Assembly (NCBI GenBank): GCA_963705555.1
Contig: CAVPJZ010000002.1
Coordinates: forward strand, 43,886 to 107,885
Direction: 5' to 3'
Length of the DNA stretch: 64,000 bases
Source of the DNA: an uncultured delta proteobacterium
Lineage (GTDB): Bacteria; Desulfobacterota; Syntrophia; Syntrophales; Smithellaceae
Both the position numbers and the translations under genes were made by a program. Under the pieces are notes generated by a model. That model saw only the letters and a list, made by a program, of their open reading frames with translations. It searched no databases and was not told where the DNA came from. This document shows, one piece after another, positions 5,144 to 62,787 of the stretch. Every line of letters begins with the position of its first letter. Position 1 is the first letter of the stretch.

Positions 5144-5899
5144 ATGGAAACTAACGACGATCACAAGATGTCCCTGACTGAACATTTAATAGAGTTACGC
5201 AAAAGGATTTTTCGCATTTTAATTGTTCTGCTTATTGGTTTTGGCGTCTGTTATTATTATAAGGATTTGGTTTTCGATATAATTACCAAACCGCTCACCA
5301 AAGTTCTTCCTAAGAACGGTTATCTTATTTATACCGGATTGACGGAAGCTTTTTTTGTTTATATGAAATTAGCTTTTTTTGCTTCCCTGATAATTACCAG
5401 CCCTTTCATCCTTTATCAAATATGGAAATTTATCTCACCGGGATTACTGCCTAAGGAAAAAAAATACGTGGTTCCTTTTGTACTTTCCTCCACCTTGCTT
5501 TTTATGAGCGGTGTTTTATTTGGCTATTTTATCGCCCTGCCGCCAGCCTTTGAATTTTTTGTCAGCTTTAACAACCAATATCTGCAGGCCATGATTTCAT
5601 TTGGCGATTACCTTTCGCTCTTTGTAACCTTTTTGCTAGGCTTTGGTTTATCCTTCGAACTGCCTATATTTATTTTCTTTTTGGCTAAATTAGGCATAGT
5701 CAACGCTAAAATGCTTTCCAAACAGAGAAGATACGCTATTTTAATTATTTTTATCGTTGCCGCAATTTTAACGCCTTCACCCGATGCTTTAAGTCAAATA
5801 TTAATGGCAATACCCTTGATGTTTTTGTATGAAGTTAGTATATTCGTGGCAAGATTTGCCGAAAAGAAAAAAGTAAATCCTGAAAATAAAGAACAATAG
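5144..5899 (+). CDS. tatC: Twin-arginine translocase subunit TatC
   Basis: 251-aa intact polytopic ORF with a typical TatC sequence (LTEHLIELRKR..., ILTPSPD). Confidence 0.9.
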   Translation: METNDDHKMSLTEHLIELRKRIFRILIVLLIGFGVCYYYKDLVFDIITKPLTKVLPKNGYLIYTGLTEAFFVYMKLAFFASLIITSPFILYQIWKFISPGLLPKEKKYVVPFVLSSTLLFMSGVLFGYFIALPPAFEFFVSFNNQYLQAMISFGDYLSLFVTFLLGFGLSFELPIFIFFLAKLGIVNAKMLSKQRRYAILIIFIVAAILTPSPDALSQILMAIPLMFLYEVSIFVARFAEKKKVNPENKEQ

Positions 5900-8316: not shown

Positions 8317-10021
8317 ATGAAATTAAAAGGTTCACAAATTCTACTGAAGATGTTGGAAGAGGAAAAAGTGGATATCATTTTCGGATACCCGGGTGGATCA
8401 GTTCTGGATATTTACGATCAACTTTATAAAAGTAACATTAAGCATATTCTGGTTCGTCATGAACAGGGGGCAGTACATGCCGCTGACGGCTATGCCCGTG
8501 CTACCGGAAGAGTGGGCGTCTGCCTGGTAACCTCCGGTCCGGGAGCCACAAACACTGTTACCGGTATCGCCACGGCCAATATGGATTCCATACCTATCGT
8601 CGTTTTTACGGGGCAAGTACCGACAGCATTGATCGGCAACGATGCTTTTCAGGAATCTGACATCACGGGCATAACACGCCCCTGCACCAAACACAATTTT
8701 CTGGTTAGGAGCGTGGAAGAGCTTGCTTCGACTATTAAGGAAGCTTTTCACATCGCGCGCTCAGGGCGGCCGGGCCCGGTTTTGGTTGACTTGCCCAAAA
8801 ACGTGATGGCAACGGAAACCGACTACGATCCCGCCAGTATTAAGATTAGAAACTATGATATATTTCACAAACCGGCCCCCAAGAAAATGGCTCAGGTTTT
8901 AGAAATGCTGACTCAGGCCAAAAAGCCTTTAATTATGACCGGCGGCGGCGTCATTCTGGGTAAAGCTGCGGCAGAGCTAACCGAACTGGCAAGACATTAT
9001 CAAATCCCCGTCACCGGCACCTTGATGGGATTGGGTTCTTTCCCGGGCACAGATCCGCTCTGGCTGGGCATGCTGGGAATGCACGGCACCTTCTACGCGA
9101 ATATGGCGGTTAGCCATTGCGATTTGCTTATTGCCGTGGGAGTGAGGTTCGACGACCGCGTCACAGGCACGATTGAAACTTTTGCCGACCAACGCCAAGA
9201 TTGTTCAAATCGATATTGATCCTTCCTCCATCAACAGAAATGTTGTCGTTGAGTTACCGATTATCGGCGAAACTAAAGCAACACTTCGGGATATGATTAA
9301 ATTTTTGGCTGAACATAACTATTCTCCATCACTATCCGACCGTAAGAAATGGCTGAGACAAATTGCCGAATGGAAGGAAAAAGTTCCGCTGACATACTGT
9401 CAAAATAGCAAAGTTATCAAACCGCAGTACGTCATCGAAACACTCCGCAAATTGACTAAAGGCAATGTTATTATCACCACAGAAGTCGGCCAGAATCAGA
9501 TGTGGACGGCGCAATTTTTCCAGTTTGATCGTCCCAATACTTTCATTACGTCCGGCGGACTGGGCACAATGGGCTATGGCCTACCCGCGGCGATTGGTGT
9601 TAAGTGCGCGTTTCCCGATAAACAAGTTGTGGATATAGCCGGCGACGGCAGTATCCAGATGAACATTCAGGAACTGGCTACTGCCGCTCAGTATAAAATT
9701 GCCGTAAAAGTCGTTCTTTTAAATAATGGCTATTTGGGCATGGTGCGCCAGTGGCAGGAATTATTTTATGAAAAACGTTATTCGCACACGGATATGACTT
9801 ATGCTCCGGACTTCGTGAAATTGGCTGAAGCTTACGGCATCGTCGGTTTGCGCGCGACAAAACCGGAAGAGGTGGAACCGATTTTACAAAAAGGGCTTTC
9901 TATCGATAAGCCGGTGTTGATGGATTTTCGGGTTTCCCGTGAAGAATGCGTTTATCCCATGGTGCGTCCGGGTGAATCCATCAGCGAAATGGAGCTGGGC
10001 ACCAGAGAAATGATCAATTAA
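8317..10021 (+). CDS. ilvB: Acetolactate synthase large subunit; one frame break near 9180-9220
   Basis: ORFs 8317..9219 and 9173..10021 are colinear with ThDP-dependent ALS ([24 protein letters not shown]). Confidence 0.9.
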
Positions 10022-10048
10022 TAAATACATAGAGAAAGGTTAATCAGC

Positions 10049-10534
10049 ATGGAAAAAAAAGAGCACATAATTTCGATACTTGTCCACAATAAACCGGACG
10101 TGTTAGCGAGAATCGCAGGAACACTGGGCGGCAAAGGCTACAACATTGAAAGTCTCTGCGTGAACACGACCACCCAATACGAAATATCGAAAATAGTAAT
10201 GACCACTATCGGCAATCAGGCAACCATTACCAGAATCGAAAGCCAATTGCAGAGGCTTGTCGATGTAATTCAAGTCGATGATTTGACCAATGTCGAATCA
10301 ATTCACCGCGAAATGATTCTCGTTCGGTTGAATTTGGCCGATGATAAAAAAGAGCAGATAAAAAAAGCAATTGACACCTACAAATGGAAGGTAATAGTCT
10401 CCAACGATGCTTTTGTAATTCTGGAAATTACTGGCGATAAACCGCAAATCGATCTTGCCCTTGCCCGATTGGAGCCTCTGGGTATCACCGATATTACAAG
10501 AACGGGTATCGTAGCTTTGAATTTAAAAAACTAA
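10049..10534 (+). CDS. ilvN: Acetolactate synthase small (regulatory) subunit
   Basis: 161-aa ORF with an ACT-domain sequence (HIISILVHNKPDVLARIAG) directly after ilvB. Confidence 0.85.
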   Translation: MEKKEHIISILVHNKPDVLARIAGTLGGKGYNIESLCVNTTTQYEISKIVMTTIGNQATITRIESQLQRLVDVIQVDDLTNVESIHREMILVRLNLADDKKEQIKKAIDTYKWKVIVSNDAFVILEITGDKPQIDLALARLEPLGITDITRTGIVALNLKN

Positions 10535-10568
10535 TTAGATTATTTACCTAAATAAACAGGGAGGTTTT

Positions 10569-11626
10569 ATGGCAAAAATTAATTTTGGCGGTGTTCAGGA
10601 AGATGTTATCACAGCGGAAGAATTTTCTCTAAAAAAAGCCCAGGAAGTTTTAAAAAATGAAGTGGTGGCTGTTCTCGGTTACGGCGTTCAAGGCCCGGCG
10701 CAGGCATTGAATATGAAAGATAACGGCATCAATGTAATTATTGGCCAGGCCAAGGAAGATAAGTCCTATTGGGATAAAGCCATGGCCGACGGCTGGGTTC
10801 CCGGTAAAACGCTTTTCCCCATTGAAGAAGCAGTGCAAACGCGGCACAATTATTCAATATCTGGTATCGGATGCCGCGCAGATGATGCTCTGGCCCAAAG
10901 TCAAAGCAAATCTGAAAAAAGGCGACGCCCTTTATTTTTCGCATGGTTTCTCCATCGTCTACAAAGAACAGACCGGCGTGATTCCGCCTGATTTTGTGGA
11001 TGTGATTATGGTCGCCCCCAAAGGCTCGGGAACCAGTGTCCGCAGAAATTTCCTGGACGGCAGCGGCATTAACAGCAGTTTCGCGGTTCATCAGGATGCC
11101 ACCGGCCGCGCGAAAGAAAGAACATTGGCGCTGGGTATCGCTATCGGTTCCGGTTTCTTGTTTCCCGACAACTTTCCAGATGGAAGTATACAGCGATCTG
11201 ACCGGAGAGCGCGGCGTGCTCATGGGTGCGCTGGCCGGAATGATGGAAGCGCAGTACAATGAACTGCGCAAGCATGGTCATACTCCCAGCGAAGCCTTTA
11301 ACGAAACAGTGGAAGAACTGACGCAGAGCCTTATTCGTCTGGTGGGCGAAAACGGTATGGATTGGATGTATGCCAATTGCAGCACTACTGCTCAACGCGG
11401 CGCACTGGACTGGCGGCACAAGTTCCGCAAGGCAGTGGAGCCGGTTTTTGCCGAACTTTACGACTCGGTCGCTAAAGGCAAGGAAACGGCAATTGTCCTC
11501 AAAGCCAACAGCGCTCCTGATTACAAAGTAAAGCTCGACGCGGAACTCAAAGAAATGCGTGAATCGGAAATGTGGCAGGCCGGCGCGGCTGTCCGTTCCT
11601 TGAGGCCGGAAAAAAGAAAAAAGTGA
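10569..11626 (+). CDS. ilvC: Ketol-acid reductoisomerase; at least two frame breaks (about 10850 and 11150)
   Basis: Three overlapping ORFs in different frames are colinear with IlvC (VAVLGYGVQGPAQALNMKDNG, SHGFSIVY, MVAPKGSG, LMGALAGMMEAQY). Confidence 0.9.
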
Positions 11627-11629
11627 CAT

Positions 11630-11746
11630 CTTTGTAAAAAATCCATCTGCTGTGTTGCGCGGCATCTCTCGTCATTGCGACGTATATAAAGAATACGACT
11701 CATTCCTCGATATTTGCGCGCCTTGCATCTGGAACTTTTTACAAAG
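11630..11746 (+). repeat. Diverged copy of the stop-codon-abutting intergenic element family
   Basis: It starts 4 nt after the ilvC TGA. An 11-bp closing helix forms between CTTTGTAAAAA (11630-40) and TTTTTACAAAG (11736-46). It has the central CGTAT-loop-ATACG hairpin and the GGCATC..TCGTC core seen in the other copies. Confidence 0.5.
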
Positions 11747-11812
11747 CTGTCTATTGGTGTTTTAATTTAATGTTATGCTATTTACTGAAAGAAAAATAAT
11801 GGAGAGAAAATT

Positions 11813-13478
11813 ATGAGAAGCGATCTCATGAAAAAAGGGTTGGAGCGTGCGCCGCACCGTTCGCTCTTTAAAGCCATGGGCTATACCGATGAAGAAATTG
11901 CACGGCCACTGATCGGCGTTGTCAATTCCGCCAATGAAATTATCCCCGGACATATTCATCTGGATTTAATTACCCAGGATGTCAAAGCGGGAATCCGCAT
12001 GGCCGGCGGCACTCCGGTGGAATTTCCGGTAATCGGAGTTTGCGACGGAATAGCAATGGGGCATGCCGGCATGAAATATTCACTGGCCAGCCGGGAATTG
12101 ATTGCCGATTCCATTGAAATCATGGCGATGGCTCATCCTTTTGACGCTCTGGTTTTTATCCCCAACTGCGACAAGATTATTCCCGGTATGCTCATGGCGG
12201 CTCTGCGCTTAAATATACCGTCCATTTTTATCAGCGGCGGCCCGATGCTGGCGGGCAAAATGGAAGGTAAAGCCGTTGACCTCATCAGCGTTTTTGAAGG
12301 CGTCGGTGCGGTTAAAGCCAAAAAGATGACCGAAGCCAGTTTAAAGCAATTGGAAGATTGCGCCTGTCCGGGTTGCGGTTCCTGCTCCGGCATGTACACC
12401 GCCAATTCCATGAACTGCGTGACGGAAGCATTGGGATTGGGGCTTCCCGGAAACGGCACGATTCCGGCGGTTCAGGCGGCGCGTCGACAGGCTGGCCAAA
12501 CACGCGGGAATGAAAATAATGGAATTGCTCAAAAAGAAAGTGAAGCCGCGCGATATCGCGACGCTGGCCGCTTTTAAAAACGCCATTGCCGTGGATATGG
12601 CGCTGGGTTGTTCCACCAATACAGTTTTGCATATTCCGGCGATTGCTCATGAAGCGGGCATTAAACTTGATTTGGACCTCTTTAATAAAATCAGCGAGAA
12701 AACTCCCAATCTCTGCAAATTAAGTCCCGCCGGTCATCATCATATTGAAGATTTGGACACGGCCGGTGGTATTCAAGCCGTGATGAAAGTCATCAGCACG
12801 CTGGGCGTCATTGATACAAAAGCCCATGACCGTTACCGGTAAAAATGTGGAAGCTAATTTAAAAAACGCCCGCGTTTTGAATGATGAAGTCATCCGGCCA
12901 TTGAATAATCCTTATTCACCGCAGGGCGGCATCGCTATTTTGCGCGGCAATCTGGCGCCGGACGGCGCAGTCGTGAAACAATCCGCTGTCGCTCCCGGCC
13001 ATGCAGGTCAACGAAGGCAGGGCCCGAGTCTTTGATTGCGAAGATGACGCCATAAAAGCAATTCTGAGGCGGAAAAATTAAATCCGGTGATATTGTTGTC
13101 ATCCGCTATGAAGGTCCCAAAGGCGGGCCGGGAATGCGAGAAATGCTTTCGCCCACATCGGCCATTGTCGGCATGGGTCTGGATAAAACAGTTGCTCTTT
13201 TGACTGACGGACGTTTCAGCGGCGGCACGCAGGGCGCGGCTATCGGCCATATCTCACCGGAAGCGGCGGAAGGCGGCCCGATCGCGCTGGTTAAAGAAGG
13301 CGACATCATTGCCATCAACATTCCGGCAAAAAACTTGAATCTGAAAGTCAGCGATAAGGAACTGGAAAAGCGCAGAAAAGCTCTAAAACTAAAAAAACCG
13401 GCGATTACGAGCGGCTATCTGGCGCGCTATGCGAAGCTGGTTACGTCCGCTTCGACGGGAGCAATTTTTAAAGACTGA
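11813..13478 (+). CDS. ilvD: Dihydroxy-acid dehydratase; at least four frame breaks
   Basis: ORFs 11813.., 12510.., 12811.. and 13134..13478 are colinear with IlvD ([45 protein letters not shown]). Confidence 0.9.
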
Positions 13479-13600
13479 TACCAATTGTTTTCTTCAGCTA
13501 ACTTTGTTGGCATCGTCGTCGGCTTCCTCAACGTATTTGTAAATACGCCTGCGGAGCATCATCCTTGCCGCCGCGTTATCCTTTGAAAGCAAAACGGTAT
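13477..13600 (+). repeat. Stop-codon-abutting intergenic element, 124 nt
   Basis: Its first bases are the GA of the ilvD TGA. It is near-identical in layout, and over most positions, to 27248-27371. It contains the core TTGTTGGCATCGTCGTCGGCTTCCTCAACGTAT..ATACGCCTGCGGAG..CCTTGCCGCC. Confidence 0.7.
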
Positions 13601-13817
13601 AAATCAACTTAGGGAACGATTGCGACCGTCCCCGCTCTTGATATAGTCTTTTAAACCGTATAACGGAACGCATCAATCCTGTAGGCCGATTGCATGCTGT
13701 TCTCAGGCAATGCTCCGGTGTAACAGCAACACTCGACTTCTCTCCATCATTCCTGGCAATACCAGCGTAACGTTAGTGAAAGTGGCGTGCTCTCGCTGGT
13801 CGCTTAATAGTGACGCT

Positions 13818-14513: not shown

Positions 14514-14586
14514 TTGATATATAAACTACGCTTTTCCTTATCTTTATACCATAGTCTGTATCAATAGTAGTAACGTTCGCTGCTTT

Positions 14587-14692
14587 CAAATCAAAGATGA
14601 TATCAAGGCGGCGAGGAAGAGGCGACGCAGGCGTATGCGGCTATACGTTGAGGAGCCGATGACGCTGCCAACGCAGATAGCGCTTTGATTTG
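14587..14692 (-). repeat. Stop-codon-abutting intergenic element, 106 nt
   Basis: It begins 10 nt after the pldA TGA when read on the minus strand. A perfect 10-bp closing helix forms between CAAATCAAAG and CTTTGATTTG. Same core and the same CGTAT/ATACG hairpin. Confidence 0.65.
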
Positions 14693-14701
14693 GAACCGGC
14701 G

Positions 14702-15815
14702 TCAGTTCCAATCCACCAGCATCAACCCGGCACTAATCCGATTTATGCTAGTGTTGTAATCGATCAGGCTCTCCCCGTAGCCATTAAAATACTGAATGTA
14801 GAAGCTGATATTTTTAAAATTATCACTGATAAAAGACAACGGAATACTCCAATCCAGTTGAACCGCCCCCAAATTATTCTCGACCGTAAATTATTGCGCA
14901 ACATTGCCGCGAAACGCTGACCTTTCCAGTAATAAATCCCCCATAATTCGCCATACCCCATATATCTGGTAATATCAGGATTATCGTCATTGTGTTCGTC
15001 TTCCGGAATCCGGTACCATGTTTTCAAAAGCAAATTAAAATTGTCTTTTTCCATGCCCACATTAGCTACAACACGGTTCCAACTGCGGGAAAGAGGCCGG
15101 GAACGGCCATTGGATTGATGGTTCAACCCAAGATTAAAATATCGTACTTTAAAATTATCAAAACCGGGGATTTAGATAATCGGTGCGAAAGTTGATCAAG
15201 CAGCTCCGGTTCGTAATTGGTATCGCGGAAAGGAGAAGAAAACGCCGAGTTGTAAAGCTGCCAGAACGAAAGTTGCGTGTAGGCCACCCATATATCTATA
15301 CCGATATCCTTTTTAAATACATCTTTCAGCGTATCCTTGAGCACATCTTCCCAAATCTTCATTTTAAAGCTTAATTGAAATTTTGCTTCGTCGTGCTGGG
15401 CTTTGGCCCTCGGATCCATATCCAAAGCGGTATCTTCATTCGGCGAGGAATTATAGGCAACAGGCAAGAAATAGTTAGGGCGGTAAGGTTTAAGCATGTA
15501 AAAAGAGCTTTTCCCTTTTTCCCCGTCTAAATCCCAGTGTTTCGACATTACGGAAATCTGCTTTTTTTCCTTCGCCGGTTCTTCAGTTACTGCTGCGGCA
15601 GCAGCGCTCGGAGGTGAAGTGTCTTTTACAGAAGTTTGTTGCTTCGCCAGATTATCGAAGCACTCCAATCTCGCAGCGGCGTCATCTTTAATTTTTGCGC
15701 ACTCAGCCACGCGGTCGGCAATTTCAGCGGCGTCACCGGGAAACGATGAAAACAGCAAAAAAAACATACATATTAATATTGTTTTAAATGCTTTCCTGAT
15801 TTTTAAAGTTTCCAT
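14702..15815 (-). CDS. pldA: Outer-membrane phospholipase A (OMPLA); about two frame breaks
   Basis: YRPNYFLPVAYNS, FQLSFK, YTQLSFWQLYN and, after shifts, NGRSRPLSRSWNR, DDNPDI and YFNGYGESLIDYN. The ATG at 15815 overlaps the upstream stop (TGATG). Confidence 0.8.
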
Positions 15816-16693
15816 CAATGCAAACCCTCTTGCCTTTCTTGTTTTCTTTTATCCAAATCAGCATATAATTTTTTCTCGCAATCCGGACAAATGCCGTGGC
15901 TGAATTCCGCCTCGGTATGTTTTTGGAGATAAGCTTCGATTTGATTCCAATAGCCTTTATCATCACGAATTTTTTTACAGTAAGCACATATCGGCAATAA
16001 TCCGCTTAACTGTTTGACATCGGCCAGGACATTTTGAAGTTCGGCAATAGTATCATGCAATTTTACAACCAGAGGTTCTGTGACCTTAATAAATATTACT
16101 GCGCCGATCATAATGGCAATAATGCCAAATAAGCCGCAAATTAATCCAGCCTTGATAAAAGGAGCGCGAACTTCGGTCATATCGACCTTAGCAACAATAC
16201 CCCAGTTTAATAGCACCACCGGTTCGTAGGCAGCTAAAACTTGTTCTCCGCGATAATCCAATCCAACAATAGTTCCGGAATTCCCGGATAGCGCCTGTCG
16301 CATCGGTTCCGCCAATCTGGAGTTGAAAGGAACCGGTTGCATATTCTGCAAATTGCTATGACGCTGATTTAAAATAAAAACAATATCATCCCCTTGTCTT
16401 TTGGCCAGAGTGAACTCACCGGTTTCACCAAAACCCTTATAATGTTTATTCGCATCTATGACTTGGCTTAACGTCGCTTCATTTACTCCCAAAGGATAAG
16501 TCTTTCTGTATAGGGAATCGAATCTAGCCACTGCTTCAATCAAGCGGGCCTGACTCACGACAATGTCCCGAAGATCATTTGCTTGTTCTTTAAATGCCGT
16601 TCGGTAAAGCATTGTAATCGCAATCACTTCGACTCCCAGAACTATCACTACCATGATTAAAATCAGCAACATAATTCTTTTGCGCGGGCTCAT
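15815..16693 (-). CDS. Membrane sensor: two TM helices flanking a Cache-like periplasmic domain, with a C-terminal CxxC...CxxC module
   Basis: 292-aa intact ORF. It has an N-terminal TM helix, the Cache-like segment DYRGEQVLAAYEP...WGIVAKVD and a second TM helix. It ends LPICAYCKKIRDDKGYWNQIEAYLQKHTEAEFSHGICPDCEKKLY. Confidence 0.7.
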   Translation of the reverse strand: MSPRKRIMLLILIMVVIVLGVEVIAITMLYRTAFKEQANDLRDIVVSQARLIEAVARFDSLYRKTYPLGVNEATLSQVIDANKHYKGFGETGEFTLAKRQGDDIVFILNQRHSNLQNMQPVPFNSRLAEPMRQALSGNSGTIVGLDYRGEQVLAAYEPVVLLNWGIVAKVDMTEVRAPFIKAGLICGLFGIIAIMIGAVIFIKVTEPLVVKLHDTIAELQNVLADVKQLSGLLPICAYCKKIRDDKGYWNQIEAYLQKHTEAEFSHGICPDCEKKLYADLDKRKQERQEGLH

Positions 16694-25812: not shown

Positions 25813-27233
25813 TTATTGATTAGATAATATCTGACGCAGGCCTTCAACAATAAAGCCAAATTCGTCTTCGGCATACCGTGCGCAAATCAATGAAGATTTC
25901 ATCTTTATCCACCCGGACAATGATGGGCACATCGAGTTTGCGCAATTTTTCTTCCATACGGCTGGCGGACATTTTTTTGTTTTTGATGCCGACTAAAACA
26001 GTGGGAATTTTCTGCGTCGGCAAAGAGCCTCCCCCCGCTGCCGCAAAATCATCGCGCAGGAAAAATTCCAGAGAGTCAAAATTTGATTTTTGCAATTTAT
26101 TGATCAGTTTGCGGGCGCGCTTTTTAACCGCGTCGACCGGCTCGGTCAATGCCTGTAGTGACCTTAGTTTTTTTACCACGGCGGCGGGATCAAGGTAATG
26201 CATCAGTGTTGCTTCCAGCGCGGCTAAGGTGAATTTGTCGATTCTCAGCGCGCGGTTGAGCGGATTTTTTTTGATTTTTTCTAGAATTTCTTTTTTGCCT
26301 ACAATGATTCCCGCCTGCGGGCCGCCCAGAAGTTTATCGCCGCTGAAGGTAACCACATCAACTCCGGTAGCCAAAACTTCGCGAATTGTGGGCTCATGCT
26401 CCAAACCGTAATTATTAAGGTCGATTACGCAACCGCTGCCCAAATCATCCATAACCGGGATACGGCGTTTTTTCCCCAAAGCCACCAGAGATTCCATATC
26501 CGCTTCTTCGGTAAAGCCGACAATGCGGAAATTGCTGGTGTGTACTTTCAGTATCAGGCCGGTTTCTTTATTTATGGCCTTTTCGTAATCACTCAGGCGC
26601 GTGCGGTTGGTTGTGCCCACTTCGCGCAAACGAGCGGCGCTTTTGCGCATAATTTCCGGAATGCGGAATTCGCCTCCGATTTCGATGAGTTCGCCGCGAG
26701 ATACTATAGTTTCTTTTCCTTCCGACAAAGTGTTGAGGACAAGCAAAACAGCCGCGGCGTTATTGTTGACAATCAGGGCATCCTCGGCGCCGGTAAGCGC
26801 GCAGATCAATCGGCTTACATGATCATAGCGCTGGCCGCGTTCGCCTCTTGGCCAAATCAAATTCCAAATTGGAATAACCCTTGCCCACTTCCAAAATTCT
26901 TTGCAGCGCTTCCGGGCAAAGCGGCGCGCGGCCAAGGTTGGTATGCAGGATAACACCGGTGGCATTGACAAGCCTACGCAAGTTATAGCGATAGAATCCT
27001 CTTATTAATTTTTCCACTTCCCGGGCAACATCATTCGTCTCTGAAGGGAATTCAGCAAGTCCTTTTCCCCTGGAATCTACAATCTTTTCCCTCAAATTTT
27101 GTACGACCATCCGGCAGGTTTCCTTGACAATATCGCGCGGCGCCAGAGTATAAATATTCTTCTTTTCCAAGAGTAGAATAACTTCGTCAATTTTCGGTAA
27201 TTTTTTCAACATCTCTTTTCTTTTTTCATCCAT
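25813..27233 (-). CDS. selA: L-seryl-tRNA(Sec) selenium transferase; at least two frame breaks
   Basis: N-terminus ...RLVNATGVILHTNLGRAPL, a PLP-domain body with SGDKLLGGPQAGIIVG, and a shifted tail ...AEDEFGFIVEGLRQILSNQ ending in TAA at 25813-15. Confidence 0.85.
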
Positions 27234-27247
27234 AAATATCCCTTCTT

Positions 27248-27371
27248 GATACCAATTCGCTTTCTTCGTCTAACTTTGTTGGCTGCGTCGTCGGCTTCCT
27301 CAGCGTATTAATAATACGCCTGCGGAGTCTCCTCCTTGCCGCCTCGTTATCCTTTGAAGGCGAAATGGTAT
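27248..27371 (+). repeat. Stop-codon-abutting element family copy, 124 nt
   Basis: Starts GATACCAATT like 13477 and ends ..AATGGTAT. The closing helix is ATACCAATTCGC/GCGAAATGGTAT plus CTTC/GAAG. It sits between the radical-SAM gene stop (27380) and the selA start (27233), antisense to them. Confidence 0.7.
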
Positions 27372-27379
27372 GACTAAGG

Positions 27380-29421: not shown

Positions 29422-29696
29422 TGTGAACCTCCAATTTTAATGAAACTCAGATATTACAAGCGCAACAAAGTAATATCTGTCAGTTGAATTATCCCACGTG
29501 CGAAGCTAAGTGGGACTATTGTAATGAGACCCAAGCTTCAGAAACAAAGTGCACTGAAGCTTGTAGGTCGAATTATCCCGCAAAGCGGAGGGTAATGAAA
29601 CGCAAACTTCAAAAACGAAGCGCATAGAAGTTTGTTAGCCAAATTGTTCCGCATAAACAGGGATGTAATACCCCACAGTTTGCTTTGAGGTTCATA
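29422..29696 (+). ncRNA. Candidate structured RNA: three to four tandem hairpin modules enclosed by a 10-bp long-range helix
   Basis: The closing helix is TGTGAACCTC (29422-31) with GAGGTTCATA (29687-96). The hairpins are 29448-56/29471-79, 29492-97/29510-15, 29533-41/29554-62 and 29604-10/29627-33. Their stems differ in sequence, while the linkers TAATGARAC and GAATTATCCC repeat. Strand and transcription are not established. Confidence 0.4.
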
Positions 29697-35361: not shown

Positions 35362-36720
35362 ATGGCGGAACAATATGATTTAGTTGTTATCGGTGGAGGC
35401 CCCGGGGGACTGGCCGCGGCCGAATTTGCTGCGAAAAACAAAAAACGTGTCCTCATCATCGAGAAAGACGGCTGGGGCGGCGCATGTACTAATCGCGGGT
35501 GCATTCCCACCAAAGCTCTGCTTACCTGTAGTAAATATTATACGGACTTAAAAAGACTAAAACGATTGGGAATTAATATCGCGGATATATCAATTGATTT
35601 TGCCGGCATCAAAAAACATCAACAGCAAATAGTCAAGGTGGCGGAGCTCGGCGCTCATAAAATGCTCGTCGATGCCCAGGTGGAAACGAAACAAGGCATG
35701 GGCGAAATTATCTCTCCGCAGGAAGTGCAATACCACGATCAACAAGGCAACTCCAAAATCATTCCCACAAAAAACATTATTATCGCCTGGGGCTCCCAGC
35801 CGCAAATGCTGCCGGAAATAAATTTATCCGAATGCATTTTAACATCGGATGGCCTGCTGAATTTAGATAGTCTTCCCGCCAGCATAATAATTGTCGGAGG
35901 TAGCGTAATCGGTGTAGAGTTTGCCACTTTCTTTGCCGAATTGGGTGTAAAAGTAACCTTAGTTGAACTATTAGACAGGATTCTACCTTACGAAGATCAG
36001 GAAGCAGTAGATTTGCTCCGGCAGGAACTGGTTCGTTTAGGCATTGAAATACATACCTCAACAAAACTCGAGAGGCTCAATGATACAGGTAGCGCGGTAA
36101 CGCTGCAGGCGCAGCAAAACATTAATAAGCTGGAGATAACCGCCGATTTCGTTTTGCTTTGCACCGGCAGAAAACCTCTGCTGGATACGGCACAGTTGGA
36201 TAAGCTGAATATCGAATATACCAAAACCGGCATCAAAATCGATCAGAATATGATGACAAATGTAGCCGGTATTTACGCGGTGGGTGATGTTACCGGCGGC
36301 TTGATGCTGGCGCACCGGGCAACTGAGCAGGGTAAAGTTGCCGCCGGACATATTTGTGAATCAAACACAATTGTTTACAATGAAAATTTTATTCCATCTG
36401 TTGTTTACAGTCATCCGCAAATCGCCCGCGTTGGCTATAATCAAAAGCAGGTGTCAAATGAAGGGTTAATCGTGGAGATCGTCAAATCCAATTACAGCGC
36501 CAATATCATCGCCCGCGCCGAACTGATGGGTCAGGGTTTTGTCAAAGTCATCTTCAATGAAGATAAAATCATCGGCGCAACCATCGTTGGTGAAGACGCC
36601 GCGGAACTAATCGTGCCTCTAAGCCTGGCTGTATCCAATGGGCTTACCAAAAAGCAACTACAGTCGTGGGTTATTCCCCACCCAACGCTAAGTGAAATAT
36701 TTGCACCACTAATTAGATGA
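35362..36720 (+). CDS. lpdA: Dihydrolipoyl dehydrogenase (E3 / L protein)
   Basis: Intact ORF with GGGPGG, the redox disulfide GGACTNRGCIPTK and HPTLSE near the C-terminus. ATG at 35362 follows GGAG. Confidence 0.85.
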   Translation: MAEQYDLVVIGGGPGGLAAAEFAAKNKKRVLIIEKDGWGGACTNRGCIPTKALLTCSKYYTDLKRLKRLGINIADISIDFAGIKKHQQQIVKVAELGAHKMLVDAQVETKQGMGEIISPQEVQYHDQQGNSKIIPTKNIIIAWGSQPQMLPEINLSECILTSDGLLNLDSLPASIIIVGGSVIGVEFATFFAELGVKVTLVELLDRILPYEDQEAVDLLRQELVRLGIEIHTSTKLERLNDTGSAVTLQAQQNINKLEITADFVLLCTGRKPLLDTAQLDKLNIEYTKTGIKIDQNMMTNVAGIYAVGDVTGGLMLAHRATEQGKVAAGHICESNTIVYNENFIPSVVYSHPQIARVGYNQKQVSNEGLIVEIVKSNYSANIIARAELMGQGFVKVIFNEDKIIGATIVGEDAAELIVPLSLAVSNGLTKKQLQSWVIPHPTLSEIFAPLIR

Positions 36721-36756
36721 GTACCAAGTCGCTATCAGGCGGCTAGCTTTGTTGGC
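36719..36756 (+). repeat. 5' fragment of the stop-codon-abutting element family
   Basis: TGAGTACCAAGTCGCT...GCTAGCTTTGTTGGC begins at the lpdA TGA. It matches the first ~38 nt of the 13477 and 27248 copies, then diverges. Confidence 0.35.
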
Positions 36757-36799
36757 TTAATCATAAGCTTGCTCAGCTTATTAAAATAAGGAGAATAGC

Positions 36800-37150
36800 A
36801 TGAAAATAATGAAGTATGCAGACATAATACCAACTCATTTCGACAATGACCAAGCAAAAGGCGTCGCGGGCCGTGTTGCGATTGGCAAGAATGACGGCGC
36901 GAATAATTTTTGTATGCGCATCTTCGAGATTGCTCGGGGAGGAAATACGCCGAAGCATGCACACGCCTGGGAACATGAAATGTTTATTCATTCAGGTGAA
37001 GGCGAAATTTACGGCAATGGTAAGTGGAATTCTATCCAACCCGGCACTGTCGTTTTTGTGCCGCCTAGTGAAGAGCATCAAATTCGAAATGCCGGCAGTA
37101 AACTATTGATTCTGGCGTGTCTCGTCCCATCAATAGCCCCAGAATTATAA
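36800..37150 (+). CDS. Cupin-domain protein
   Basis: 116 aa with cupin motifs (HAHAWEHEMFIHSGEG...FVPPSEEHQIRN). Confidence 0.7.
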   Translation: MKIMKYADIIPTHFDNDQAKGVAGRVAIGKNDGANNFCMRIFEIARGGNTPKHAHAWEHEMFIHSGEGEIYGNGKWNSIQPGTVVFVPPSEEHQIRNAGSKLLILACLVPSIAPEL

Positions 37151-44347: not shown

Positions 44348-44363
44348 TGGCATGTTAGTTGCT
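44348..44363 (+). promoter_or_regulatory. Sigma-54 (-24/-12) promoter
   Basis: TGGCAT-GTTAG-TTGCT matches TGGCAC-N5-TTGCW with correct GG/GC spacing. GAGG lies at 44384 and the ATG at 44398. Confidence 0.6.
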
Positions 44364-44885: not shown

Positions 44886-45176
44886 ATGAAACGTTTAGTA
44901 TTGTTTGTTGTCGCATTGGTTTTCGCATTTTGCACCACCGTTATGGCAGCTGATAAACCCGCTGCTGTTGGAACAGCCGCGCCCACAAAGGATGAACAGG
45001 CAGCCACGATGAAAGCTGACCAGAAGAAAGCCGCCGCCGATAAGAAAGCGGCCCAGAAGAAAGCAGCCGCAAAGAAGAAAGCAGCCGAGAAGAAAGCCGC
45101 TGCGAAGAAAGCCGCCGCCGATAAGAAAGCAGCCGAGAAGAAAGCAGCTGAACCTGCACCAGCACCCGCAAAATAA
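44886..45176 (+). CDS. Secreted Lys/Ala-repeat (histone-H1-like low-complexity) protein
   Basis: Signal peptide MKRLVLFVVALVFAFCTTVMA, then KKAAADKKAAQKKAAAKKKAAEKKAAAKKAAADKKAAEKKAAE. Strong RBS AGGAGGA. Confidence 0.65.
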   Translation: MKRLVLFVVALVFAFCTTVMAADKPAAVGTAAPTKDEQAATMKADQKKAAADKKAAQKKAAAKKKAAEKKAAAKKAAADKKAAEKKAAEPAPAPAK

Positions 45177-51720: not shown

Positions 51721-51867
51721 TTATAACAAACTTGATATCCGAAGTAGAACGCTGCGGCAGCGAGGAGGCTCCCGAGGCGTATTTTTAACGCGTGACCTTC
51801 AGGTTATACGTTGAGGAAGACAACGCAGCTGCCAACAAAGTTATACGAAGGAGGTCGAGTTTGTTAG
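51721..51867 (-). repeat. Stop-codon-abutting element family copy, 147 nt with an expanded central loop
   Basis: The 9-bp closing helix TAACAAACT/AGTTTGTTA overlaps the aminotransferase TAA (51864-66). It has the same core, and the CGTAT..ATACG hairpin carries a 24-nt insert. It lies between the stop codon and the 51621-56 terminator. Confidence 0.65.
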
Positions 51868-53074
51868 AAATTTTTAGCGGCCTGTTCAATCCCTTTTTTA
51901 ATCTGATTAAGCTTTTCCGCACTCATCTTGACCGATATGCCCATTACCAGTGTCCGGCCTAAAATATTTTCGGCATGCGGAATGCTTTCCCTCGAATACT
52001 CAACCTTGCCTTTATAGGACGGATCGGTAAACGGATATTTCTTGGAGTTGGCAGTCGAGCGCGCCAGGAAATGTTCCCAGTTCGGAACATAATGCCACAG
52101 ATTTCTCTTGTAGCAGACGGTATCGACACCTTCAGCCGCCAGCAGATTCTGAAATTTTTGCGCCTGATTTTCATCCGGCAGATTAAAGGCTAAAAACGTG
52201 GCGGAATCTCCCTCGGGATCGGGTTTCGCGCGGAATCCAACACCCGGAACCTGCGCCAATGCATCCATAATAATTTTTTTATTTTTCTTCTGCTCGCCGA
52301 TAAGGTAATCCAGTTTGCGCAATTGCGCCAGGCCCAACGCTCCCTGCAGTTCGTTCATCCGGTAGTTGAAACCCAGAATGGTTCTGCCTTCCAGCGCGCG
52401 GCTGACTTTGGGATTATGATCATGGCCGTGATCGTGATACCATTCCGACCGGTGATAAAGATCGAGGTTGTTGGTAATCACCATGCCCGCCTTCACCGGT
52501 TGTTACCGTTTTAACATAATCAAAGCTGAAAGCTTCCCATATCGCCGAAAGCTGCCCAGTTTTTTACCTTTGAAGCTTGCACCGCAGCCCTGAGCGTTAT
52601 CTTCCAGAACCAGCAATTTATTTTTGCGGGCGATTTCCACGATTTTATCGATATTGGCCGCCGAGCCGCACATATGCACGGGAATGACCGCCTTGGTATA
52701 GGGTGTTTTTTTCTTTTCAATTTCCTGCGGATCAAGATTGAGTGTATCGTCAATATCCACCATTACCGGAATGGCGCCGACTTCCATTACCGCTTCATAA
52801 GTGGCCAAAAAAGTAAAAGCGGGCACAAGAACTTCATCGCCGGGGCCTACATCCATCGCCGTCAAGCGCAACTTTGCAGCGCCGCCGAACCGGAAGTTAC
52901 GCCCAGCGCGTAGTCGGGTCTCGCAATATTTGGCAAACGCTTCTTCAAACTCCCGGACCTTGATAAATACCTTTTCTTTCTTTATCAAATCCGTAACGCA
53001 TCAGGATGCCGGTTTCGAAGCACATCCATTACTTCCTTGATTTCTTCTTTGCCGATTAGTTCTGCACCAGCCAT
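51864..53074 (-). CDS. DegT/DnrJ/EryC1/StrS-family PLP aminotransferase; about three frame breaks
   Basis: Fragments 52503..52988 and 51864..52496 plus a short N-terminus from ATG 53074 (RBS GGAGG) are colinear with the family (DEVLVPAFTFLAT, NYRMNELQGALG). Confidence 0.8.
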
Positions 53075-53101: not shown

Positions 53102-54259
53102 TTAAAAAGCCTGCGCGTACATTGCGATCATGTCATCTTTGGTTACTTTGCGCGGATTGTTTTCCAGCGGCCGCGCCACAGTCATCGCCACATCGGCCAG
53201 CGCCGGAAAATCTTTTTCTTTAATGCCGAATTCAGCAAGCGTGCTGTGAATGCCGCAATCCTCAATTAATGCTTCGACGGCTTCCAGCGCCAAATAAGCG
53301 GCCTCGCGGGCGGGAAGACCTTCAACACATTCTCCCATCGCTTCGGCGATATCGGTAAATTTTTCCAACGCGGCGGGCAGATTGAAAGCCATTACCGCCG
53401 GCAGCATCATCGTATTGGCGAGCCCGTGACCGACACCGTATTTACCGCCCAGCGGATAAGAAAGCGAATGCACCGCGGTTACGCCGGCGTTGGCCAGCCC
53501 GATGCCGGCATATAAACTGCCCAAAAGCATTTTTTCGCGCGCAGCTATATTTTTGCCGTCATGCACGCAGGTGCGCAAATTTTCGGCAATGAGCACAATC
53601 GCTTCCAGGGAAAACATTTCGCTCATGGGCGAGGAATTAACGGATGTGTATGATTCGATGGCATGACATAGCGCATCAAGGCCTGTTTGCGCCGTAGGCG
53701 CGGGCGGCAGGCTCAGCGTCAATTCCGGATCCAGAAGCGCCAGCTCCGGATAAAGATAAGGGCTGTTCATTCCTTCCTTCTTTTTCAAATTTTTCCGCAC
53801 AAAAACGGCGGTAAAAGTGACTTCACTGCCGGTTCCGGCGGTTGTCGGAATCATGATTTTCGGCAAGCCCGGCTTGCGGAACTTTATTCAGCCCCAGATA
53901 ATCAACTGCGCCTCCTTTGTTGGTGGCCAAAACTGCGATTGCTTTGGCCACATCCATGGCGCTGCCGCCGCCGATGCCGATGACGATATCGCTTTGATTT
54001 TTAATTGCCATCGCCGCGCCTTCATCCGCCAGTTCAATCCGCGGTTCCGGCTCGACCTTATCATAGACTGTAAATTTAATGCCTTCGGGATAAGAATATT
54101 GGCCACTTTTTCCTGAAAACCTGTTTTGGCAAGATTTTTATCGATAACCACTAGAGGATTTTGCGCGTGTAGTTCTTTGATGTGAGTGGCCAATGTTAAT
54201 AATGATCCGTTGCCGAAAACAATTTTTTTCGCGCCGGTAAAAGAAAATATTTTTTTCAT
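53102..54259 (-). CDS. Iron-containing alcohol dehydrogenase; about two frame breaks
   Basis: GGGSAMD, PTTAGTGSE and the His-rich metal-site region (HAIES..., VHSLSYPLGG) appear across three shifted ORFs. Confidence 0.8.
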
Positions 54260-55094: not shown

Positions 55095-55277
55095 CTATTT
55101 CCTCCAGCAACAATGCCTGTATCATATTCCGACACTCTGCGCTATCCCGATAGCCTTGACTGCGAGATCAATTCACCTTACAAATTTCAATGTACTTCGT
55201 TTTTGAAATTTGAGTTTCATTGATGTCATAAACAAATATCGTTTGCTGTTGTATAACCTTTTTGTTATTTACAGATC

Positions 55278-57723: not shown

Positions 57724-59079
57724 ATGGAAGCAGTTTGGGACAAAACGAGCTAAAATTATTCAGGAAAAGCTAAGTAAGCAAAATTTTGATACCTGGATAA
57801 AACCGATCAAAATAGTTGCCATGGAAGATAAGTGCGTGCAACTGATGGTGCCCAATAAATTTTTTAAAGATTGGCTTTTGGATAATTATTTTTCTACGAT
57901 TAAACAATCATTGCAAAATGTTGTTGGTATTGATGTTGATATTGATTTTATCCTCTCTAAGATAAAGAAAAAAGCCCAGATTCTGTGTCAAAGTCCCCTA
58001 TGCAGGCGAAAAACGCTTCTTCTTCGACGGCAAGTAAAGGGAAAAATTATTCTTTCTTAAATAATAACTATACCTTTGACAGGTTTGTGGTGGGCCCCTG
58101 CAATCAGTTTGCCCACGCCGCTTCCATTGCCGTAGCCAAACAACCGGCAAAAAATTATAATCCTCTGTTTATTTACGGCGGATCCGGTTTAGGAAAAACA
58201 CATTTACTTAATGCTATTGGTCTTCTCACCACTACCGCCCATCCGGAACTAAATGTTATGTATGTGTCCGCGGAAGAATTTATGAATGAAATGATTAATT
58301 CCATTCGTTATGACCGGATGCCCAAATTTAGGGAAAAATACCGTAATATCAGTTGTTTATTAATTGACGATATTCATTTTTTAGCGGGAAAAGAAAGAAC
58401 CCAGGAAGAATTTTTTCATACTTTCAATACGTTGCATGATTCGGGAAAACAAATAGTCGTCACCAGTGATAAATTTCCTAAAGATATTCCTAATTTGGAA
58501 GGACGACTGCGTTCTCGTTTTGAGTGGGGATTGATTGCCGATATTCAACCTCCGGAAATAGAAACAAAAATTGCCATTATCGAGAAAAAAATGCAGGAAA
58601 GTAAAATTGACTTTACCTAGTACATGTTGCTCATTATATTGCCTCTCACGTAGAATCCAACATTCGTGAACTGGAAGGCTTTCTAGTTAGAATAAGCGCT
58701 TATTCTTCTTTAACAGGCAGAGAAATTGATTTGGATTTAGTAAAGGAAGTGTTAAAAAACGTAGTTAAACACAATGAAAAAGAAGAAGTAAGTATTGAAG
58801 AAATAATTAAAGTGGTTGCCGGAAAATTAAACGTAAAAATATCCGATATAAAAGCGCATAATAAAAATAAAAATCTTGTTTTTGCGCGACAAATTGCCAT
58901 GTATTTAGCCAGAAAATTAACCAATGCTTCTTTTCCGGATATCGGTCAAAAAATCGGCGATAGAGATCATTCGACGGTAATTTATGCCAACAAATAAAAT
59001 TTTAAACAATATTGAAGTCGATTCTAAATTAAAAAATATAATTCAGGAGATTGAAGATATTTTAATCCACAAAACGTAA
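57724..59079 (+). CDS. dnaA: Chromosomal replication initiator DnaA; at least four frame breaks
   Basis: MEAVW.., FDTWIKPI, the AAA+ segment [15 protein letters not shown], and domain IV ([21 protein letters not shown]). The segments sit in successive frames. Confidence 0.9.
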
Positions 59080-59242
59080 AGTTTTTAACATCAGTTTATA
59101 AACAGGTGATTATTATTATAAATTATTGTAATTATTATAAAAACTATATTTACTCAACATATCCACAGGCTCTATTACTAATACTATTTATTAATATATA
59201 AGAAAATAATAATAATAAATAATACAAAACAAGGAGGAAAGT
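59080..59242. other. Candidate oriC / DNA-unwinding region in the dnaA-dnaN spacer
   Basis: Very AT-rich, with ATTATTATAAA-type reiterations at 59109-59145 and one DnaA box, ATATCCACA, at 59159-67. Confidence 0.45.
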
Positions 59243-60352
59243 ATGGAATTTAAAATAAACAGAAACACCTTTCTTGATGGTATTCAAAAAACTTTAGGAA
59301 TTGTAGAAAAAAAGACAACAATGCCCATTTTAAATAATGTTCTTTTAAAAGCGGAAGCCAATAAACTTAAAATAATTGCTACGGATAGAGAAATAAGTTT
59401 AATTTCTGATTATGAAGCGGAAATAGTAGAAAAAGGTGAAATAACTATTTCAGCGAAAAAATTATATGAAATGGTTAGAGAAATTCAAGGAGAAGTTATT
59501 TCTTTTACTCAAAATAATAACGTTGTAAAAATATCCTGTCAGAGAGCTGTTTATAAAATACCCGGCTTACCGGCAGAAGATTTTCCCAGTATTGCCGATG
59601 ATCATGATGTTCAACTTTTTAATATTAAGGGAACAATAATTAAGGATTTAATTAATAAAACAGCATTTGCTATGGCTACAGATGAAATGAGAAAAAACTT
59701 AAATGGAGTTTTATTAGAGGCTGTCTCAGATGAATCAAATAATGTATTGCGCATGGTGGCCACCGACGGCCATCGTTTAGCCGTGGCAAAAGATGTAATA
59801 TCTGAGCCTTTTTTAGAAACAGGAAAGGGCGTTATCATTCCCCGCAAAGGTTTAATGGAAGTTAAAAAAATTATTGATGAAAACGAAAGCGTCAAGATAG
59901 GCATTCATAAAAACATGTTTGTTATAAAAACCGATAGTACGCTTCTTAAAGTTAGTCTGGTTGATGCTGATTATCCTGATTATAAAAGGGTTATTCCCGC
60001 GGAAAAAGGTATAAATATTGTTTTGGAAAAAGAGTCTTTCCTTCATGCTTTGCGCAGAATGAATGTTGTTTCTTCGGAACGTTATGGCGGAGTTATTCTT
60101 TCCTTTTCGGAAGGAAAGTTAACTCTTAATTCGACTAACCTGGATGTGGGCGAAGCAACGGAAGAAATAGATATTACTTATAGTGGTGAGGATATGGATG
60201 TGGGATTTAATGTGAATTATTTGATTGATGCGATTTCCGTCATCAGCAAAGAAAGTATTCTGTTTGAGGTTGGGTCGGGCATTAAACCGTCAGTGATAAA
60301 GCAAACTGAAGGCGATGATTATTTGTGTATCGTTATGCCGTTAAAAATATAG
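59243..60352 (+). CDS. dnaN: DNA polymerase III beta sliding clamp
   Basis: 369-aa intact ORF colinear with DnaN ([16 protein letters not shown]...ATDGHRLA...). Confidence 0.9.
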
Positions 60353-60380
60353 AGAGTGTGAAGGAGTTAAAAAAGCAGTT

Positions 60381-62787
<2,407 letters not shown>

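Follow-up and report, generated by a model that had tools for sequence, protein, structure and literature searches.

Directly behind the stop codon of ilvD, at positions 13477-13600 of a 64,000-nt stretch of DNA from an uncultured delta proteobacterium of the Smithellaceae (assembly GCA_963705555.1, contig CAVPJZ010000002.1, positions 43,886 to 107,885; the whole stretch is called the window hereafter), lies a palindromic intergenic element that recurs elsewhere in the window. The initial annotation, made from the letters alone, had described five full copies and one 5' fragment of this element and had set two readings side by side, a structured RNA family of 3' untranslated regions (3'-UTRs) and a miniature element that inserts next to stop codons. 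Which of the two is it, and why do the copies lie where translation ends? The answer that we favour, and consider probable, is that the family consists of miniature, non-coding, hairpin-forming mobile elements, which resemble MITEs (miniature transposable elements with inverted repeats), stand near the REP and ERIC palindromic repeats, and are subject to a filter on their orientation. Neither Rfam 15 nor the papers that were searched contain the family, and it is best filed as a further kind of MITE- or REP-like repeat, not as a new system.

Detection, distribution and fold

A profile search with nhmmer and a covariance model, R1 (filters off, seeded from relatives in other phyla), were run on the window. 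R1 returned exactly five full copies with E values from 6e-15 to 8e-8, located at 11631-11744 (+), 13484-13588 (+), 14585-14695 (-), 27265-27357 (+) and 51732-51858 (-), and the next match had an E value of 0.07. This sub-threshold match, at 5682-5746 (-) inside the open reading frame (ORF) 5144-5899, retains no more than the basal helix and a portion of the internal loop and is probably spurious. With nhmmer, four full copies were found at E values from 2e-35 to 4e-25, together with the fragment at 36722-36784 (E = 1e-4); the copy at 11631-11744 was not among the nhmmer matches in the window. Since this copy is a seed sequence of R1, its score under the model is circular, and it is counted as a member because it has the J-loop, helix P1b and the rod architecture in common with the family. 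Together with an alignment of the six stretches, both searches bore out the number, places and strands of the copies as first described. The core pattern TCCTCARCGTAT-N3-30-ATACGCCT occurs 4 times in the window (0.00 expected), and CTTTGTTGGC occurs 5 times (0.17 expected).

The 22-nt core pattern was scanned against public genomes as well, with one genome per species, and 8-kb blocks around the matches were fetched as loci (designated by L numbers). At least 119 loci in public genomes match the core. Among the matches listed, most come from metagenome-assembled genomes (MAGs) labelled Smithella, Syntrophaceae or "delta proteobacterium", and the other labels include Treponema, Dethiobacter, Clostridiales, Peptococcaceae, Oscillospiraceae, Planctomycetota, NC10, Myxococcia and Gammaproteobacteria. 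Contamination does not account for the copies in other phyla, since their stem sequences are lineage-specific and the Treponema copies lie beside the Treponema-specific TD-2 motif. The family is part of a wider superfamily across several bacterial phyla. The window itself is 84-91% identical to three delta MAGs over kilobases, which marks its genome as Smithellaceae-like. Within the fetched loci, 149 covariance model matches (124 + 25) were obtained at E <= 0.001, and R1 also recovered copies with a variant core; 147 copies of at least 86 nt from 128 independent contexts, the five window copies included, were analysed further. A plasmid collection gave no match to the element, and a viral collection gave one contig with two copies. 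The neighbours of the copies are diverse housekeeping genes, and clustering of all ORFs in the 119 loci yielded no protein family that is found repeatedly next to the element in different lineages. Many of the Treponema copies are immediate neighbours of the TD-2 RNA (RF03162; loci L026, L039, L073, L084, L091, L108, L112, L115 and others). Tandem pairs 10-30 nt apart were found in Treponema and in one Clostridia MAG (L070), for example at 89-200 and 210-321 of L073, and recall BIME-like clusters.

Copies are about 105-150 nt long, and every member is a near-palindrome that folds as one long rod. From base to tip, the rod consists of a variable outer stem, a short helix interrupted by a U.C/C.U mismatch (in F-type copies AUCU/AUCU), an internal loop that is conserved (5'-UGCGUUG / 5'-CGCCUUG), a stem P2 of 4-16 bp in most copies and longer in a few, a bulged U followed by CC/GG, a U.C mismatch and CA/UG, and a 5-bp hairpin, CGUAU/AUACG, with a free loop of 3-7 nt that sometimes holds an extra small hairpin. 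The apical module UCCUCAA-CGUAU/AUACG-CCUGCGG is conserved. P2 has no sequence conservation; its sequences are unrelated between lineages and even within one Treponema MAG, and in the a-type Smithella copies it is shrunk to GGCU/AGCC with a large internal loop. The loop lengths, the variable outer helices and the change of an inner pair from TAAC/GTTA to TATC/GATA in one window copy were all read from the sequence as the initial annotation had them.

Covariation was tested on a MAFFT alignment of 24 sequences from different lineages, which was not fitted to the structure. Here, 87.3% of the cells are paired, compared to 30-47% when partners were slid by 1-3 columns, both sides had changed in 18 of the 27 pairs, and the observed values were reached by 0 of 500 shuffles. 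The stems thus vary freely in sequence and yet keep their complementarity. The apical hairpin, P3, covaries in variant copies (CGUAC/GUACG and CCUAC/GUAGG), and the apical mismatch motif is flipped end for end in one subfamily, to which the copy at 11630 belongs. The conserved core with covarying stems that had been proposed is strongly supported, and it reaches across phyla.

Two further features of the arms and loops were observed. A mini-hairpin of 20-24 nt, AACCTGAAGGTCACGCGTT (51817-51794 (-) in the window; L106, L056, L079, L024), sits, in one orientation or the other, in the apical loops of copies that are independent of each other, and in one case in a 5' arm. It is lacking in the L012 and L083 orthologs of the window copy at 51721, and it represents either a very small mobile module nested in the element or a recombination product. 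GC-rich, REP-like arms (TTGCGCNCCC...GGTC / GACC...GGGNGCGCAA) surround some copies (L085, L055, L062, L022, L015, L106, L111), and chimeric copies have one a-type arm and one GC-rich arm, which suggests nesting or recombination between two repeat families.

Mobility and the link to stop codons

Neither a terminal inverted repeat nor a target duplication had been visible at first, a statement that proved wrong for the copies at 13477 and 27248, which both have TACC...GGTA termini. The former, an a-type copy in sense orientation at 13476..13602 (+) (R1, E = 3e-10), comprises an element of 121 nt (13479-13599) between a TGA at 13476-78, which is the directly abutting ilvD stop, and a TAA at 13600-02. 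The latter, also of the a-type, at 27247..27373 (+) (R1, E = 1e-10), has an element of the same length (121 nt, 27250-27370) within an exact 3-bp TGA/TGA duplication (27247-49 and 27371-73). In general, copies of the a/b-type, the commonest subfamilies, are bounded by TACCAAGTCGCATTC.../...GAATGCAACTTGGTA, and other subfamilies have different, also complementary ends. TACC...GGTA termini were found in 41 copies, and the bases outside them are TNA. An exact 3-nt direct repeat flanks 22 of these 41 copies, compared to 9.1 +/- 2.4 with shuffled right flanks (P < 1e-4); none of the repeats reaches 4 nt, and a palindromic in place of a direct repeat was seen only 3 times. Duplications of a 3-bp TNA are the trace left by IS5-family and PIF/Harbinger-type transposases.

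The comparison of orthologous loci that had been proposed at the outset revealed filled and empty sites among relatives, and these show mobility. In L004, an a-type copy lies exactly at the stop of a gene whose homologs in the window (53102-53866) and in L012 have none, whereas the c-type copy behind the aminotransferase gene is found in the window, L012 and L083 and is missing from L004. ilvD is followed by an a-type copy in the window but by a very different, F-type copy in L042; behind lpdA, a full b-type copy occupies in L051 the intergenic space in which the window has the fragment; and behind ilvC, L042 has unrelated hairpins where the window has the copy at 11630. The ilvC-ilvD spacer of L042 (6964-7139) contains three short GC-rich hairpins (ATTCCCGC..GCGGGAAT, TCCCGGCGAAAGCCGGGA and ATTCCGG..CCGGAAT), which look like another repeat type. 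With terminal inverted repeats, a supported 3-bp TNA duplication and filled and empty orthologous sites, the evidence speaks for the miniature mobile element among the two readings first offered.

The most likely source of these copies would be an IS5- or PIF/Harbinger-like insertion sequence whose DDE transposase, as judged from the ends, would act in trans, and such an insertion sequence would be expected to end in TACCAAGTYGCATTC inverted repeats beside TNA duplications. Whatever its middle base, a TNA reads as a stop codon on one of the two strands. An insertion into the TAA or TGA of a gene is therefore made good by the duplication, which restores the stop and keeps the protein whole.

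The proposed association with stop codons, together with the orientation preference, holds over the 147 copies, which come from many genomes. For 62 copies, a same-strand ORF of 100 aa or more ends near the 5' end, with offsets that peak sharply at direct abutment, and a convergent ORF ends near the 3' end of 25 copies, with offsets that have no peak. Copies that tightly abut the stop of such an ORF (100 aa or more) number 35 in sense versus 3 in antisense orientation, and about a quarter of all copies abut a stop codon. Stop-abutting copies with exact a/b-type ends (8 sense versus 1 antisense) and those from non-delta lineages (17 sense versus 3 antisense) are biased in the same direction. 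The adjacent stops are TAA (29), TGA (22) and TAG (11). Between co-directional genes, 32 sense versus 21 antisense copies were found, which is near even away from stops, and in 17 cases a copy lies between divergent genes. F-type copies carry a TGA within the TTGAAAA of their 5' arm, which is read as the stop of the upstream gene in L045, and the stop distances in L103, L118 and L091 fit a TGA supplied in this way.

In the window, copies adjoin the stops of ilvC, ilvD, lpdA, pldA and the aminotransferase gene, as had been noted. The F-type full copy at 11630..11746 (+) lies in sense orientation 4 nt past the ilvC TGA (11624-26) and 67 nt upstream of the ilvD start (R1, 59.8 bits, E = 6e-15, as a seed). 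Its internal loops are canonical (CCAUCUGC-UGUGUUG... / ...CGCCUUG-CAUCUGG), and its apical module is the flipped variant. Also in sense orientation, the b-like copy at 14585..14697 (-) starts 8 nt after the pldA TGA (14704-02) and has outer arms CCAAAUCAAAG/CUUUGAUUUG, the inner pair UAUC/GAUA and no TACC termini (R1, E = 2e-8). The c-type copy at 51721..51867 (-), again sense, is a palindrome, UAACAAACU.../...AGUUUGUUA, of which the first three bases are the TAA of the aminotransferase gene (51866-64); it carries an extra hairpin of 23-24 nt within its apical loop, and an intrinsic terminator follows downstream at 51656-51621 (R1, E = 8e-8). The element at 27250-27370 has, as described, the stop of a radical-SAM gene (HemN-like, minus strand; stop at 27380-82) on one side and the start of selA on the other, but it is antisense to both genes, as both are on the minus strand. 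Finally, the 5' fragment of an a-type copy at 36718..36784 (+) opens with the subfamily-terminal TACCAAGTCGC, continues to CTTTGTTGGC and is then decayed (nhmmer, E = 1e-4). Here, the lpdA TGA occupies 36718-20, TACC starts one base later at 36722, and the fragment is followed by a ribosome-binding site and the start of a cupin gene at 36800. The names of the flanking genes (ilvC, ilvD, pldA, lpdA and similar) were confirmed with NCBIfam.

In several genes of the window (ilvB, ilvC, ilvD, pldA, selA and that of the aminotransferase), the coding sequence is broken up into 2-3 reading frames (8317-13478, 14764-15818, 25844-27240, 51864-52988), owing to either assembly indel errors or pseudogenes; the nearest relatives of the window are presumably long-read MAGs. 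Any ORF-based statistic is therefore limited by split reading frames.

Bac_DnaA, DNA_gyraseB and GidB (Pfam) were found among the ORFs at ~57985-62787, near an AT-rich stretch (GC 0.33 at 58001-60000), and the window probably contains a chromosomal replication origin. All five full copies of the window lie on one side of this dnaA/gyrB region, on the strands +, +, -, + and -. Because the strands are mixed on one side of the apparent origin region, the orientation follows the genes and not replication. A replication-strand account was rejected on the same mixed strands, and the local GC skew, which follows gene direction, is uninformative in this respect.

Weighing the explanations

Copies persist mainly just after genes. 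Under the mobile-element reading, the sense bias at stops would most likely result from a filter that acts after insertion, for which an asymmetry of the strands would be a plausible basis. In 137 of the 147 copies, including all five in the window, the fold of the sense RNA is 6-8 kcal/mol weaker than that of the antisense RNA, and on the sense strand the conserved mismatches oppose two pyrimidines. Tracts that resemble Shine-Dalgarno sequences (GAGGA and AAGGAGG) are found in the antisense RNA and, together with its tighter hairpin, would do harm directly behind a terminating ribosome. A same-strand intrinsic terminator was found behind several Firmicutes copies, as behind the window copy at 51721, and those Firmicutes copies are therefore co-transcribed. 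By analogy with ERIC and REP, co-transcribed copies would probably serve as 3'-end or intercistronic hairpins that alter mRNA stability. Since the irregularities of the helix are kept across phyla, a protein, either the transposase or a host factor, would be expected to recognise the folded element.

Several points weigh against this reading. Conservation is highest in the centre, and the ends differ from one subfamily to another, the reverse of ordinary MITEs, so a simple transposase-binding model does not explain the pattern. The copy at 14585-14697 and its L042 ortholog are identical except for the apical loop between flanks that are ~85-88% identical, which points to strong constraint or gene conversion and not to a decaying parasite. 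A target duplication was shown only for copies with TACC ends, and not for F-type, c-type and b-like copies that lack them. No autonomous element or transposase with matching ends was found among the window ORFs with the listed families, in the fetched loci or in a metagenome scan; the initial annotation had likewise seen no transposase in the window. The fetched loci contained no lone terminal repeats, and when metagenomes were scanned for terminal repeats that lack the MITE interior, the outcome was further MITEs and, for the most part, chance 15-mers. A 2-kb pair (L228/L229) that was considered as the autonomous element turned out to be an unrelated, ORF-less, AT-rich palindrome. Furthermore, the filter is itself deduced from the fact that inverted-repeat ends cannot set an orientation, the exact identity of the core is partly a matter of ascertainment because the loci were fetched with the core as query, and the ORF calls behind the counts are crude, with some assemblies frameshifted.

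The alternative that survives best, although we regard it as doubtful, is a structured RNA that benefits the host, i.e., a cis-acting, protein-bound 3'-UTR or intercistronic element that would work at or after the translation stop in 3'-end protection or processing, termination or ribosome rescue, with mobility as a mere means of spreading. The covarying stems and the asymmetric loops that recur across phyla fit such a role, as do the strong sense bias at stop codons and the same-strand terminators behind several Firmicutes copies and behind 51721. The internal J loop contains three conserved G.U pairs on the sense strand only, and one ortholog is perfectly kept except in its loop, although the flanks differ by 12-15%. 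However, G.U and A.C departures in stems outside the delta lineage are equal (20 versus 22), so that this test for the RNA strand gave no signal, and it is the sense RNA that has the weaker fold in nearly all copies. The numbers for co-directional pairs and the 17 copies between divergent genes do not match such a function either, and copies are gained and lost between close relatives beside genes that are unrelated to each other.

A related proposal, unlikely but worth stating, sees in the rod a protein-recognised module that is tied to translation stops across phyla, either as a cis-acting RNA at terminating ribosomes and mRNA 3' ends or as an orientation-specific mobile element that targets stops. 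On the sense strand of the 3' arm (e.g., 13549-13570 and 27320-27342), CCUGCGG is followed after 5-15 nt by CCUCCUU (CCUUG in other phyla). We take these to be the same two stretches, in the same order, as at the 3' end of 16S rRNA, where they form the 3' strand of helix 45 and the anti-Shine-Dalgarno. Judged from this likeness in sequence, the element might mimic 16S rRNA or pair with Shine-Dalgarno sequences, and the likeness may also be a coincidence.

Quite improbable in our estimation is a single-stranded DNA hairpin, of which the folded strand would be recognised by a HUH/Y1 transposase (REP/RAYT, IS200/IS605) or by an integrase (attC) and which would insert strand-specifically at gene ends or hairpin tips. 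Conserved bulges and mismatches do recall the extrahelical bases of attC sites and the end hairpins of IS608. Watson-Crick pairing on both strands without an excess of wobble pairs, the same inner core inside unrelated outer palindromes (GC-rich REP-like and chimeric arms included), different family members at the same site in relatives, and the small hairpin module in both orientations in apical loops would all be expected of such an element. It is contradicted by the 3-bp direct duplication and the inverted-repeat ends of a/b-type copies, which are absent from HUH elements, and by the window copies, whose orientation follows the genes and not the direction of replication. In addition, no RAYT, TnpA or IntI gene was seen beside any copy, and the attC R''/R' consensus and a cassette array are lacking, with a match to an attI-leader at E = 1 as the sole hint.

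A sigma-54 promoter or another transcription signal as the cause of the conservation, suggested by the TTGGCA in the 5' arm and by the CTTTGTTGGC in common with a sigma-54-like site at 44348, can practically be dismissed, as a scan for TGGCAC-N5-TTGCW with up to 2 mismatches matched 44348 (1 mismatch) and no copy, total matches were below chance, and TTGGC is not conserved in other lineages (loop UGCGUYG). About 650 nt downstream of this site (TGGCATGTTAGTTGCT), at 45000-45163, in-frame tandem repeats of 15/18 nt of the GCNGCCNAGAAGAAA type would, if translated, give an AAKKKA-like tract rich in Lys and Ala.

A second, unrelated repeat family was observed at 29439-29670 (+) and 55166-55221 (-) of the window and at 4530-4597 of L083. 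It comprises three tandem units of ~77 nt with AATGAAAC, a hairpin with a variable complementary stem, GAATTATCCC and a second small hairpin. At the site of the solo copy (55166-55221), the BLAST alignment of the window and L012 has a gap of ~64 nt, and the family had no match in Rfam.

With 5 copies in 64 kb, Smithella-type syntrophs may carry a few hundred copies per genome if this density holds genome-wide. Annotation of the family would clean up gene ends, as some stops are supplied by the element, and would explain many "conserved intergenic hairpins" in these MAGs. A central module whose fixed irregularities are kept while the stems change would imply a conserved binding partner, and the tolerance of one orientation at stops offers a natural experiment on what the ribosome or the decay machinery accepts after a stop.

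Comparison with known systems

That the element is not a named Rfam family, as had been supposed, was confirmed: Rfam 15 had no match in the window at gathering thresholds, and permissive searches with the element and with copies of other phyla gave only E >= 1. Neither a named family of this kind from Smithella or deltaproteobacteria nor MITEs located at stop codons turned up in searches of the literature. Among the Rfam hairpin motifs, TD-1, TD-2 and lacto-2 are alike in that they are repeated rods with conserved loops and covariation. TD-2 lies beside the element in many Treponema loci and is a neighbour, not the element itself, and TD-1 was rejected with 26 bits on the opposite strand against a cut-off of 64.5. 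Identity with an intrinsic terminator was likewise rejected, as no T run follows the copies and separate terminators lie downstream of some. A SECIS, which is a hairpin right behind an in-frame UGA of a selenoprotein gene and has a conserved apical loop, or a readthrough signal does not fit, because all three stops occur, apical loops vary freely, the host genes are ordinary and the ORF through the copy at 13477 ends early in the copy at 27248.

Integron attC sites resemble the element as imperfect palindromes of 60-140 nt right after a stop, in the conservation of structure (bulges) over sequence, and in their occurrence in Treponema, delta-proteobacteria and Planctomycetota. However, in attC sites it is the outer R''/R' boxes (RYYYAAC/GTTRRRY) that are conserved and the centre that varies, whereas the element does the reverse, and copies follow scattered housekeeping genes and do not form a cassette array beside intI. 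The inner GGCTAAC/GTTATCC fits attC only partly and is lacking in F-type copies (CAUCUAC/GUAUCUG), and with this housekeeping context and an attI-leader match of only E = 1, attC was rejected. Derivatives of IS200/IS605 (PATE) lack inverted-repeat ends and target duplications and insert 3' of a fixed tetra- or pentanucleotide; this class was ruled out by the inverted-repeat ends and the direct 3-bp duplication of the element.

REP sequences are defined as palindromes of 20-40 bp with an unpaired GTAG or CGTC tag and without target duplication; their usual place is downstream of genes, where a stop codon is often provided by the terminus of a GTAG REP (PMC3733652). The family shares with REP, BIME and REPIN repeats the interspersed palindromes that are mostly found downstream of genes, between co-directional or convergent genes, and the tandem dimers, seen here in Treponema and Clostridia loci; REP, too, is thought to act as RNA hairpins. 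It differs by its single rod of 105-150 nt, the conserved internal loops and the 3-bp TNA duplication in the main subfamily, and it has no terminal GTAG or CGTC tag, so that it does not belong to the REP/REPIN-RAYT class. Neither a RAYT gene nor any common neighbour gene was seen in the 8-kb blocks around the matches.

The closest counterparts are MITEs with T(N)A target duplications of 2-3 bp, namely the bacterial Correia/NEMIS, RUP and ERIC and the eukaryotic Tourist elements (PIF/Harbinger-IS5 superfamily), of which ERIC has an orientation-dependent effect on the upstream mRNA (PMC2229807). With a size below 300 bp, many copies and apparently no coding function (no common neighbour protein family, a stop codon in the ORF of one copy), the family agrees with the definition of a MITE, and so do the terminal inverted repeats of a/b-type copies and the insertion polymorphism between L004 and the window, L012 and L083; the target duplication is shown only for TACC...GGTA copies. 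What sets the family apart is its centre, conserved across phyla between covarying stems and subfamily-variable ends, the sense bias at stops, and that no matching insertion sequence is known. In all other respects, it is like these MITEs: 100-150 nt in length, non-coding and present in many copies per genome, with terminal inverted repeats, a short TA-containing duplication, a hairpin that spans the whole element, intergenic or 3'-UTR sites, and filled and empty sites among relatives.

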